From a virus (lineage: Duplodnaviria; Heunggongvirae; Uroviricota; Caudoviricetes), in the IMG/VR virus record IMGVR_UViG_2778261354_000005: DNA of 7,640 nt, one strand, 5' to 3'. The notes under the pieces were generated by a model, which worked only from the letters and a program-made list of their open reading frames with translations, did not search any database and was not told the DNA's origin. How positions within the stretch are numbered: the first letter of the stretch is position 1; every line of letters starts with the position of its first letter. The position numbers and the translations under genes were made by a program. Shown piece by piece: positions 3,734-5,961 of this stretch.

Positions 3734-4029
3734 ACAACCTCCTTCCGCAGCATGAGAATTGTGTAGCCACGCGCAGGTTGTAGTCTGGCTTTTGCATCAA
3801 TAGTAAGCGTTGCAATTTTTCGGATATGAAGATAACCAGCTCTTTCCAGTGCCAGGGTTTCCCTGAATATCGCTTGCTTAGAACAACAGCAGAAATCAGC
3901 AAGCACCTGATGATCAATAACTCTCTCGCCTTCACCGTCTGAAGAACCCGACATCAAAACACGCAACATAATCAGGCGCTGAATCGGGTTATCGAAAGCA
4001 CATCCGCACACAAACTGAAAACAGTTCAC
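3730..4029 (-). CDS. Hypothetical protein, 99 aa (possible DNA-binding)
   Basis: GTG start at 4027-4029 is preceded by GGGAGGTG. It is stop/start coupled on both sides (GTGA at 4026-4029; ATGA at 3730-3733). No family recognised. Confidence 0.55.
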   Translation of the reverse strand: MNCFQFVCGCAFDNPIQRLIMLRVLMSGSSDGEGERVIDHQVLADFCCCSKQAIFRETLALERAGYLHIRKIATLTIDAKARLQPARGYTILMLRKEVV

Positions 4030-4250
4030 GCCACACCTCCCAGACGCTTAAACATTTTTCCGGAGCAAAAGGCTATAAGCGGCATACTGACGCGGTAATT
4101 ACGGCCCAGCGGTTCACAAACCACCTTCTGACATTCACGGTCAACCAGGCTAACACGTAGAACATGCCCAGCAGGCGTGGTGTACCACTGACCCGGACGA
4201 GGACAACGGAAAGTATGATTGGTAAACCGTTTGAAAATATTCCGGATCAT
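4026..4250 (-). CDS. Hypothetical small protein, 74 aa, 4 Cys
   Basis: ATG at 4248-4250 is preceded by AAGGGGG. ATGA overlap with the upstream ORF stop. No family recognised. Confidence 0.5.
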   Translation of the reverse strand: MIRNIFKRFTNHTFRCPRPGQWYTTPAGHVLRVSLVDRECQKVVCEPLGRNYRVSMPLIAFCSGKMFKRLGGVA

Positions 4251-5407
4251 TTGCGCCCCCTTACCTCTGAAGGGTTCAGCGACAAATTTATGAGACAGGC
4301 CAGCGCCGAAGCATCATTAATATAGTCATATAAGCTAACAGCCAGCGGAGATTCGGCTTTTGCCAACATAGGATAAAGCTGCTGCAGCCAGACCTGATGA
4401 ATTGATGAAATGTAGGAACAGAGAACGCTGGCGTTATGTGCAACGTCGCTCGGTACAGCGGGCTTTGAAAGCTGTTTCTCCATCTGGTTAAAGGCATTTA
4501 TGTATGCCTCTTTGAACCGGGCAGCACGTTTACCCGTGAAACCCATAGCAAGAAACGCAAAACCGTCTCGTGTGATTTGATAGCAAGGGAGCTTGCGTGT
4601 ACCACCGTTCGGTTGATTTACCGAAATCGATGTCTCCGCAAAATTGCGGGCACAAAACTCTGGGGAACAATCCAGAGTGCGGATCTTTTTCAGCACATCG
4701 TCGTGACGCTTGGAGAAGAAGTTGGCAACAGCCAAAGAAGTGGTAACGGCCTGGCCGTTGTCAATGGTGATTTCAGGTTGAGTGAGGGCTGGGATCGTAG
4801 CCATGATGGCAGCCTCCGTTGACAGTGAAAAACTTCCACCACCGGAAACGCCAATTTCACTGGTGGTGAACTGGACGGGGTTGGCGTAACCGGCGTCAAC
4901 GGAGACCGGCGCACCTTTCGGTGCCCCCGCCCAGCCCACCATAATCTGGATGTGAGCAAATGCGGACGATAAAAAAGACGCTGGCGCGTCATACATCGCC
5001 GTTGACAATTTCAGGACGCCAATCCCGGCACCCGCTTTATAAGGTGCCTGAGCAGTGTAACGTCCCGGAATTGCAGAATCAATATGCTGGTGGTCCTTCA
5101 CACTCAACAAAATCACGCCTGAATTTCCACAAAGGACTAAAGCACTCATGCGGGTAGTCTTTGCGAAGATAGATAACGCGCTGTGTTTCTGGCTCCCAAC
5201 GAATAACATGGACATAAAGCCCTCTTCCGTCACGAAACCAGCGGTTAAGTTCCTGCACAACTCGCCCCCCACAGTCAGGTAAAGTTCTCTGTGGTTACTT
5301 ACAGCCAGGTGATTTGGTAATCTGCATTCATGCCGTAACAACAGGTGTTCAGCGACGCTGACCACCAGCTGTTGCGACAAACGGTTATTTGCCGTTAAAC
5401 TATTCAT
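4247..5407 (-). CDS. Rha-family phage regulatory protein; Rha domain in the C-terminal 185 aa, with an in-frame 201-codon N-terminal extension of unknown function
   Basis: Residues about 212-310 match the Rha pattern (VTTSLAVANFFSKRHDDVLKKIR…YQITRDGFAFLAMGFTGKRAARFKEAYINAFNQME). An internal ATG at 4802-4804 (MATIPALTQPEITIDNGQAVTTS…) has GGAGG 8 nt upstream and would give a canonical 185-aa Rha. The frame nevertheless stays open for 201 codons upstream, to an ATG at 5407 that overlaps the CII-like stop (ATGA). Confidence 0.6.
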   Translation of the reverse strand: MNSLTANNRLSQQLVVSVAEHLLLRHECRLPNHLAVSNHRELYLTVGGELCRNLTAGFVTEEGFMSMLFVGSQKHSALSIFAKTTRMSALVLCGNSGVILLSVKDHQHIDSAIPGRYTAQAPYKAGAGIGVLKLSTAMYDAPASFLSSAFAHIQIMVGWAGAPKGAPVSVDAGYANPVQFTTSEIGVSGGGSFSLSTEAAIMATIPALTQPEITIDNGQAVTTSLAVANFFSKRHDDVLKKIRTLDCSPEFCARNFAETSISVNQPNGGTRKLPCYQITRDGFAFLAMGFTGKRAARFKEAYINAFNQMEKQLSKPAVPSDVAHNASVLCSYISSIHQVWLQQLYPMLAKAESPLAVSLYDYINDASALACLINLSLNPSEVRGRK

Positions 5408-5961
5408 GCGTTAGTTTCTCCACAACCAGAAGCAATCGACGCCACGACGCCCGGAGCTGCACACTCGCGGGCGTTACTATTTTCTGGAGCGCAGAAGATT
5501 TTGTAGACCAGTGCTGCATGCTCCTGGAGCTTCGAAATTGAAAGATACAGTTCGTCGTTAATTGCTGTCTTCTCATGCGGTTCCACTACACCGTCTTCGA
5601 TTGCTGAACGAATCTGTTTTGAATAACTGCCGATCTGTTCAATGACTTCCAGTAAACGCTGGTTAATATCGGCATTGTCCACATCCTCGACGTCAGGAAG
5701 AGACACAAAGACGCCATTTGCAGACTGCGCCACAGCGTCAGCAATGAAGTGAGTGCCACCAGCACGTTGTAAAATCATTGCCCATCCCAGCGGGAAAATC
5801 TGATCGCCATCGGCACGAAGGCGGTTAAATAATGCGTTCTCTGTTACATCCAGCCACTCAGCAGCTTCAGCGTAACCCTCCGGCAACGCCGCGATAGTTT
5901 TTCTGACAGCTTTCACGTACCACTCAGGCTGTTTTTCCACTTTCCAGTTATGATTACCCAC
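5404..5961 (-). CDS. CII-like early regulatory protein (tentatively the larger phage-186 CII type)
   Basis: 185 aa. GTG start at 5959-5961 has AGGAGG 6 nt upstream and overlaps the cro-like 3' end by 8 nt. The call rests mainly on position directly after cro; family membership is not verified. Confidence 0.5.
   Translation of the reverse strand: MGNHNWKVEKQPEWYVKAVRKTIAALPEGYAEAAEWLDVTENALFNRLRADGDQIFPLGWAMILQRAGGTHFIADAVAQSANGVFVSLPDVEDVDNADINQRLLEVIEQIGSYSKQIRSAIEDGVVEPHEKTAINDELYLSISKLQEHAALVYKIFCAPENSNARECAAPGVVASIASGCGETNA

Follow-up and report, generated by a model that had tools for sequence, protein, structure and literature searches.

An open frame in phase with rha covers a small overprinted gene and two regulatory RNA genes in an SfV/ST64B/mEp460-like Escherichia coli prophage

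The window analyzed here is the whole 7,640-nucleotide (nt) stretch of IMG/VR virus record IMGVR_UViG_2778261354_000005 (Caudoviricetes), and our subject is a 386-codon open reading frame (ORF) on its minus strand (4247 to 5407), which runs in phase into rha, the gene of a Rha-type regulator. All features described below lie on the minus strand. Prophages that share 99.9% identity with the window occur in many E. coli genomes (533 records cover at least 80% of the query), and the kin of the window include phages SfV, ST64B, mEp460, and cdtI as well as several Shiga toxin (Stx) phages. The element is an SfV/ST64B/mEp460-like E. coli prophage, and the ORF belongs to a cassette in the early rightward operon, between ymfL and the replication genes. 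An earlier, sequence-only reading had noticed that 201 in-frame codons precede the canonical Rha start, and had offered a two-domain Rha protein, nested long and short products, or an accessory gene fused by stop loss as explanations. We found that this 201-codon extension is no protein domain: its frame is open across two regulatory RNA genes and a small gene that is read in a different frame. The overall arrangement is a nested long/short design of an already known kind, that of phage P4 eta/kil, and not a new domain fusion.

The long frame and its two starts

The gene upstream of the long frame, ymfL (5404 to 5961), encodes a CII-like protein of 185 amino acids (aa) (Phage_CP76, PF06892, E value of 7e-13 in Pfam), and the Prokaryotic Genome Annotation Pipeline (PGAP) labels it "protein YmfL" in near-identical E. 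coli loci. Its TGA stop (5406-5404) shares an ATGA with ATG 5407, the start of the eta-like long frame, and a GGAG is located 10 nt upstream of that ATG. Further down the same frame, an internal ATG (4804-4802) is preceded by GGAGG (4817-4813) with a spacer of 8 nt and begins the short product, a 185-aa Rha (4247 to 4804), whose gene is the cargo and corresponds in position to P4 kil. Phage_pRha (PF09669) covers residues 21 to 110 of this 185-aa product (E value of 2e-28 in Pfam). The internal GGAGG-N8-ATG and the ATGA overlap with the stop of the CII-like gene are thus present as the sequence-only reading had described them.

In the 603-nt extension, the long frame (frame A) contains no stop codon, compared with 12 and 10 in the other sense frames and 12, 7, and 6 on the opposite strand, where only short unconserved ORFs were found (6 to 12 stops per frame). 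None of 20,000 shuffles of the extension kept frame A open, and a Poisson estimate gave a probability of about 1e-4. When 53 distinct relatives (78 to 100% nt identity) were compared, frame A was free of stops from 5413 to 4780 in all of them, including the region near 4805 to 4830 for which the sequence-only reading had proposed a comparison of stop codons, and every indel among these relatives was a multiple of 3. Because the stop counts, the shuffles, and the relatives agree, the openness of the 201 codons is real and not due to chance, as had been claimed.

The annotation of this frame varies among databases. On near-identical sequences, PGAP calls either a 386-aa Rha (L001) or, in the 96%-identical L002, a 300-aa Rha starting at ATG 5149 together with a DUF4222 protein. 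Many database copies of the long ORF are named "peptidase," and the two RNA genes described below are annotated in none of the records examined.

The Ash region and its RNA genes

Pfam Phage_ASH (PF10554) matches residues 117 to 212 of the long ORF with an E value of 4e-21. Directly under this match, and on the same strand as the ORF, Rfam identified an IsrK/P4 seqA-like RNA (4971 to 5047; RF01394, 62.2 bits against a gathering score of 50, E value of 8e-12) and a C4/P4 CI-type antisense RNA (4859 to 4946; RF01695, 81.4 bits against a gathering score of 45, E value of 2e-15). A terminator scan predicted an intrinsic terminator at the IsrK end (4990-4971, GACGC-GCCA-GCGUC followed by U6). In front of IsrK lies a candidate sigma-70 promoter (5054 to 5082), the equivalent of P4 PLE, with TTGATT as the -35 element (5082-5077), a 17-nt spacing, TACACT as the -10 element (5059-5054), and +1 near 5047. 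In 72 distinct upstream contexts, among them that of P4 (TTGCCT-17-TATAGT), the hexamers are retained and their distance to the IsrK start is constant, while the spacer varies.

The specificity elements of C4 are b', formed by the hairpin loop CUCCGUUGAC (4904-4895), and a', ACGCCAA (4887-4881). IsrK carries the corresponding target sites a1 (5022-5016, UUGGCGU, in a hairpin loop) and b1 (5006-4999, GUCAACGG), and a second set is located in the leader downstream of C4 (4813 to 4854), the seqC equivalent, where a2 (UUGGCGU, 4854-4848) lies just 3' of C4 and b2 is GUCAACGGAG (4823-4814). In the window, the complementarity of a' to a1 and a2, and of b' to b1 and b2, is perfect. Site b2 overlaps the Shine-Dalgarno (SD) sequence GGAGG of rha, and because b2 contains this SD, AUG 4804 is the conserved antisense-controlled start of the 185-aa Rha-type regulator. 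No ORF comparable to icd intervenes between C4 and rha; b2 and the SD directly precede the rha AUG. Codons ~109 to 201 of the long frame thus contain the candidate promoter, both RNA genes, and the C4 target with the rha SD.

RNA covariation was evaluated on an alignment of 26 cassettes, with slid controls (about 40% paired) and 500 shuffles. The C4 outer stem was 99.8% paired (compensatory pairs, 7/17) and C4 hairpin 1 was 100% paired (4/5). The antisense-target pairings behaved alike: 95.8% for b'-b2 (compensatory, 7/10), 96.2% for a'-a2 (6/7), 97.8% for a'-a1 (6/7), and 96.2% for b'-b1 (7/7), and none of the 500 shuffles matched the observed pairing values. The C4 5' stem also holds an in-frame AUG, codon 156 of the long frame (4940 to 4942), whose AUGG is invariant in the 26 cassettes. 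Across 97 unique cassettes we counted about 47 a'/b' combinations, each matching its own targets with perfect 7- to 10-nt complementarity. The two elements assort independently (roughly 11 a' types and more than 25 b' types), which suggests a modular exchange of RNA immunity specificities among prophages, phage-inducible chromosomal islands (PICIs), and P4-like satellites.

At the protein level, the ratio of nonsynonymous to synonymous polymorphism (pN/pS) of the Ash part (5077-4805) was 0.68 to 0.93 in the long frame, near that of out-of-frame controls, and the alignment of 53 relatives showed no codon periodicity there, diversity being equal at the three positions. AlphaFold2 gave a predicted local distance difference test score (pLDDT) of 23 to 34 for residues 1 to 211 and of 67 to 82 for the Rha domain in the same run; no secondary structure was predicted over residues 104 to 213 (pLDDT of 23 to 29). 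Because the input alignment was shallow (29 sequences, mostly 86 to 97% identical, two at 73 to 80%), with the Rha domain serving as internal control, the low N-terminal values are supportive but not decisive. The structure prediction proposed by the sequence-only reading thus returned no fold for the N-terminal region, and the 201 codons, lacking a predicted fold and amino-acid-level constraint, do not behave as the ordinary protein it had supposed.

The coincidence of Ash and RNA holds in the window (4772 to 5059), in P4 (L233, 8330 to 8704), and in 19 other Ash-matching loci. Every one of the loci with a tblastn Ash match (19/19), from at least 10 genera including Citrobacter, Edwardsiella, Erwinia, Pantoea, and Plesiomonas, carried the same RNA pair beneath the match, and a twentieth scanned locus, e14, had neither Ash nor the RNA pair. 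We conclude that, in these loci, Phage_ASH corresponds to the translated seqA/IsrK-CI/C4-seqC RNA region and that its behavior is that of RNA, not of a protein domain. By sequence, the window ORF is an ordinary member of PF10554 and of the PGAP "Rha family phage regulatory protein" (382 to 387 aa), with hundreds of 85- to 96%-identical entries, but unlike what a protein domain implies, its "domain" coincides with two Rfam RNA genes.

Some prophages contain tandem IsrK-C4 cassettes with different a'/b' specificities (L011, 2636 to 3783; L128; L039; L149; L211), and in these loci, frames lacking stops fuse into ORFs of 243 to 397 aa. Tandem cassettes may also be the source of database proteins of 592 to 821 aa, some of which contain more than one Ash stretch (P0001, P0077, P0125).

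Codons 1 to 110, DUF4222, and e14 ymfM

Codons 51 to 110 of the long ORF overprint a DUF4222 gene (5079 to 5258; PF13973, E value of 9e-14 in Pfam), which lies in the -1 frame with respect to the long ORF and encodes 59 aa. It starts with GTG, 6 nt upstream of which there is a G-rich SD-like run, and its TGA falls within the -35 element of the RNA promoter. By comparing the two frames over 5258-5151 in the alignment of 53 relatives, we obtained a pN/pS of 0.05 to 0.21 in the DUF4222 frame versus 0.9 to 6.8 in the long frame, with diversity highest at the third codon position of the DUF4222 frame; ymfL in its own frame, the positive control, gave 0.15 to 0.45. The DUF4222 frame is the selected frame over codons 51 to 110. 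Codons 1 to 50, the leader of the long frame (5259 to 5407), showed a weak purifying signal (pN/pS of 0.15 to 0.65), and a Pfam search of them gave no match. DUF4222 is carried in 78 of 156 distinct upstream contexts, and three different arrangements were seen in which the long frame runs over it.

The "hidden second gene" of the sequence-only reading is real, but it lies elsewhere than expected, being a DUF4222 gene in the -1 frame plus two RNA genes. A gene in another frame and a want of protein-level conservation, both of which had been named as observations that would speak against a long protein, are found over part of the region, and still the frame is open. Entry into DUF4222 by a -1 shift out of the long frame at the heptamer G GGG GGC (about 5268) was considered and rejected, because the heptamer is not conserved in e14, where DUF4222 is preceded by a canonical AAGGAG-N8-TTG; in addition, the G-run of the window stands at SD distance from the GTG.

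Codons 1 to 110 align with ymfM (b1148) of the K-12 prophage e14, to the start of which the leader is homologous. The start and end segments are similar and the middle is unalignable, but the frame is preserved because the net length difference is 30 nt. Both frames start at an ATGA after ymfL, share their first and last parts, and overprint a DUF4222 ORF, whereas e14 has neither the RNA cassette nor rha, and its ymfM frame ends just past the DUF4222 region, 10 nt before a replication gene. When the window was compared with e14, the DUF4222 frame gave a pN/pS of 0.28, and the ymfM frame gave 1.45. An exhaustive HMMER search with residues 1 to 110 returned, beyond close relatives and fragments (at least about 77% identity), a single weak match (P0264, 41%); the remaining HMMER matches to the ORF cover only residues ~100 to 215. 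The option of an accessory gene joined to rha without a stop is hence only partly right: it holds for the homology of codons 1 to 110 to ymfM.

In K-12 e14 (L112, 4323 to 4700), ymfM is annotated as an SOS-inducible "cell division inhibitor"; beneath it, in the -1 frame, lies a DUF4222 ORF that carries no annotation and has an AAGGAG-N8-TTG start and a stop overlapping the start of the next gene. In the ymfM filamentation study, the pBAD-ymfM clone contained the whole ORF and no frame-specific mutant was made, so this clone cannot separate the two frames. A concrete doubt is thereby raised as to which frame of e14 ymfM causes filamentation. As a tentative joint reading, to which we give rather less than even odds, codons 1 to 110 and ymfM might be the leader of an "immunity-bypass" frame and not a functional protein, the DUF4222 protein would then be what this DNA conservedly encodes and could be the real filamentation factor, and override frames might be standard in the IsrK-C4 cassettes of lambdoid prophages and PICIs, whatever the cargo.

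Cassette phase, known systems, and the override model

The string GAGGCUGCCAUCAUGGCUAC, comprising the SD, the AUG, and Met-Ala-Thr, is found downstream of C4 in every cassette, with SD, AUG, and MATIP conserved. Past this string, the sequences diverge into at least five unrelated cargo types: Rha of 177 to 215 aa, a short Rha of 120 aa, the 77-aa protein of SfV, Kil-like proteins of 64 to 65 aa, and proteins of 148 to 153 aa whose function is unknown. This divergence of the cargo past the conserved SD-AUG string explains the mosaic joint with SfV orf37 at about 4780.

If the extension consisted of RNA genes only, the in-phase frame should often be broken, which was not observed. In 19 of 21 diverse cassettes, the frame of the cargo AUG is stop-free from upstream of IsrK, at a distance that is a multiple of three. 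A frame-unbiased sample was also assembled, in which cassettes were gathered by the SD-AUG DNA string (ATGGCTAC) alone, avoiding protein-based ascertainment; it held 73 unique cassettes in 18 clusters at 85% identity. The frame was in phase and stop-free in 16 of the 18 clusters, with isrK-to-AUG distances (d) of 243, 246, 282, 285, 288, and 327 nt. For the 97 unique cassettes, which combine this sample with the earlier tblastn-ascertained loci, the mean number of stops was 0.28 in the in-phase frame versus 3.65 and 1.89 in the others. In many contexts, the first ATG of the long frame forms an ATGA with the stops of unrelated upstream genes (86 to 516 codons). We also asked whether the cassettes with d values of 242 and 265 nt were of the AUGA-coupled Gifsy-1 type described below, but this was ruled out, as the search pattern excludes that type.

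The closest parallel is phage P4. There, the 199-codon eta ORF (8767 to 8168) overlaps the alpA-like ORF88 by an ATGA at its start and encloses isrK (8692 to 8615) and C4 (8507 to 8420). Phage_ASH matches residues 22 to 146 of Eta, whose last part is the 65-aa Kil, and the Kil start carries the same EAAIMAT. According to the part of PMC10111431 that summarizes Forti et al. 1999, Kil is a truncated Eta, full-length Eta is translated only from the upstream promoter and is coupled to the alpA homologue, and Eta translation prevents termination, thereby overriding RNA immunity. Both systems share the order of upstream gene, ATGA, long ORF, internal promoter (a candidate one in the window), seqA/IsrK, CI/C4, the target with the SD, and an in-phase AUG within the conserved string. 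However, P4 is a satellite with a 65-aa Kil as cargo, whereas the window comes from a lambdoid prophage that has a protein CI/Cro switch and carries a 185-aa Rha-type regulator. The window frame also starts 106 codons further upstream and overprints the DUF4222 gene, and the spacer between the two RNAs is 24 nt, compared with about 107 nt in P4.

Gifsy-1 is likewise a lambdoid prophage in which IsrK (34316 to 34240) and a C4-like RNA (STnc1160; 34214 to 34131) precede an antirepressor-like, Rha-family cargo gene, anrP. Its orf45 crosses C4 in the same frame from the same conserved AUG, the start (A107 from isrK +1) corresponding in position and frame to ATG 4942 of the window, and a Pfam search of orf45 gave no match, the sequence being too short. 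Hershko-Shalev et al. 2016 (PMC4825925) showed that orf45 is translated and that translation of the antirepressor-like gene behind it depends on this; they also noted that the nucleotide sequence is conserved and the amino acid sequence is not. In contrast to the window frame, which is in phase with rha and reaches up to ymfL, the Gifsy-1 frame starts only inside C4 and ends at an AUGA overlap with anrP, out of phase with it. The Gifsy-1 locus adjoins a Q-like antiterminator gene, whereas the window cassette is part of the early replication operon. For lambdoid prophages of Salmonella, IsrK-C4 systems had been noted before (Barquist et al. 2013).

With the immI region of P1 and P7, the window shares C4 pairing and a nested in-frame design. 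There, C4 a'/b' reportedly pair with a1/b1 and a2/b2, with b2 covering the ribosome-binding site. The antirepressor under this control is made as nested in-frame forms (ant1/ant2), and specificity shifts by covariation of loop and target. P1 has a separate small gene, icd, between C4 and ant, which the window lacks, and no long ORF spanning c4 is known to have been described for P1.

On these grounds, we put at roughly 70% the reading that the window carries a P4-type RNA immunity cassette in which the extension is not a domain and the long frame is kept open as an override. What we observed directly is the layout of the cassette, its RNA folds and their target pairings, the conserved start codon under antisense control, selection on the DUF4222 frame, and a conserved in-phase open frame; that this long frame is kept open and in phase on purpose is a probable interpretation, drawn from its conservation and from P4 and Gifsy-1. 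In a lysogen, the internal promoter alone would fire and yield IsrK and C4. By pairing with a2/b2, C4 would mask the Rha SD and block Rha translation, and it would favor termination (Rho-dependent in the P4-type model) before the replication genes; processing of C4 by RNase P is part of the same model. On induction or derepression, transcripts would come from the upstream early promoter, and ribosomes ending ymfL would restart at the ATGA, coupling them to the long frame. Their passage across DUF4222, the terminator, and C4 would keep the RNA structures from forming, and Rha, in its long form, and the downstream genes would then be expressed regardless of C4. AUG 4942 would be a third in-frame start, the counterpart of that of Gifsy-1 orf45. 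Nested long and short products from one frame are thus the best-supported option of the sequence-only reading, given the C4-targeted start at 4804, the conserved open frame, and the eta/kil layout.

Several points weigh against the override reading. The promoter is a consensus-level prediction with 8 of 12 matches, below the threshold of the promoter scan. Two of the 18 cassette clusters (d values of 242 and 265 nt) have no in-phase frame, so such a frame is not indispensable. The relatives L053 and L054, whose sequence upstream of about 5386 is unrelated, lack the ATGA start with ymfL as a result, and their first in-frame ATG is codon 65. Part of the openness, over DUF4222 and over the invariant RNA positions, would be inherited without selection on the long frame, and for this prophage, a 386-aa product or translation from 5407 is something that we infer.

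Alternatively, the long ORF might be a functionless annotation artefact, and the locus would yield nothing beyond DUF4222, the two RNAs, and the 185-aa Rha. Openness would then be due to DUF4222 codons, invariant RNA positions, and G+C-rich stems, and the annotation to gene callers that take the longest ORF. The 201 codons indeed lack amino acid constraint, save weakly in codons 1 to 50, AlphaFold found no fold, the PGAP calls for L001 and L002 are inconsistent, the Ash stretch stands at highly variable offsets in database proteins, and two cassette clusters do without the frame. An artefact should not, however, keep phase through length variants of 3, 39, 42, 45, and 84 nt, nor leave hypervariable loops, targets, and spacers without an in-phase stop in 16 of 18 clusters while other frames average 1.9 to 3.6. 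Since the ATGA junction recurs with unrelated upstream genes, and the homologous frame is translated in Gifsy-1 (PMC4825925) and, by the summary part of PMC10111431, in P4, we consider the artefact unlikely.

A purely evolutionary accident, in which an e14-type ymfM was fused to rha by stop loss or recombination without regulatory meaning, would explain why codons 1 to 110 align with ymfM including its ATGA start and why the e14 frame stops just after the DUF4222 region. It is nevertheless very improbable: the arrangement is not a one-off but is open in 53 of 53 distinct relatives down to 78% identity, it overprints DUF4222 in three upstream arrangements, the in-phase design also occurs with entirely different upstream genes, and ymfM itself lacks amino acid constraint where it overlaps DUF4222. 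Hardly credible at all, in our view, is the two-domain protein, in which Ash would fold and act biochemically in its own right at the N-terminus of Rha, its coding sequence merely overlapping the RNA genes. The Phage_ASH match is strong (E value of 4e-21), thousands of database proteins show the Ash+Rha architecture at 382 to 387 aa, the literature handles Rha and Ash as domains (PMC8951638), and indels are in-frame only. Yet the pN/pS of the Ash part (about 0.7 to 0.9) is scarcely under that of out-of-frame controls, its three codon positions are equally diverse, the covarying RNA stems and target sites fully account for its sequence conservation, and residues 104 to 213 have neither confidence (pLDDT of 23 to 29; 23 to 34 over the whole extension) nor secondary structure. 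A predicted terminator and a candidate promoter also lie inside this "domain," which coincides with the IsrK and C4 genes, and in Gifsy-1 conservation was likewise found in nucleotides and not in amino acids (PMC4825925).

Two other ORFs of the window may be mentioned here. After rha, a 74-aa ORF (4026-4250) starts at an ATGA overlap with the rha stop and has no Pfam match; in L178, its N-terminal codons (MIRNIFK.FTN) are the start of a long frame into a further cassette. A 108-aa ORF (1667-1993) between RusA and a Dam methylase consists of a LexA DNA-binding domain alone (PF01726, E value of 3e-19). It lacks the S24 peptidase portion and has no counterpart in locus L001, which is otherwise nearly identical.

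In practice, this analysis chiefly yields a corrected Ash/Rha annotation and a doubt about ymfM that can be tested. The proteins of 382 to 387 aa that are labeled "Rha family," "peptidase," or "Ash/Rha" in databases, with hundreds of distinct entries from hundreds of E. coli genomes, are read-through frames over two RNA genes, the regulated product being the 185-aa Rha. Work that treats Ash as a domain, such as Stx-phage typing (PMC8951638), could turn to the RNA immunity system instead. Under the override reading, the P4 eta/kil design would be common to lambdoid prophages with varied cargo, and its large repertoire of loop-target specificities would amount to a second level of immunity, based on RNA and placed ahead of the replication genes.

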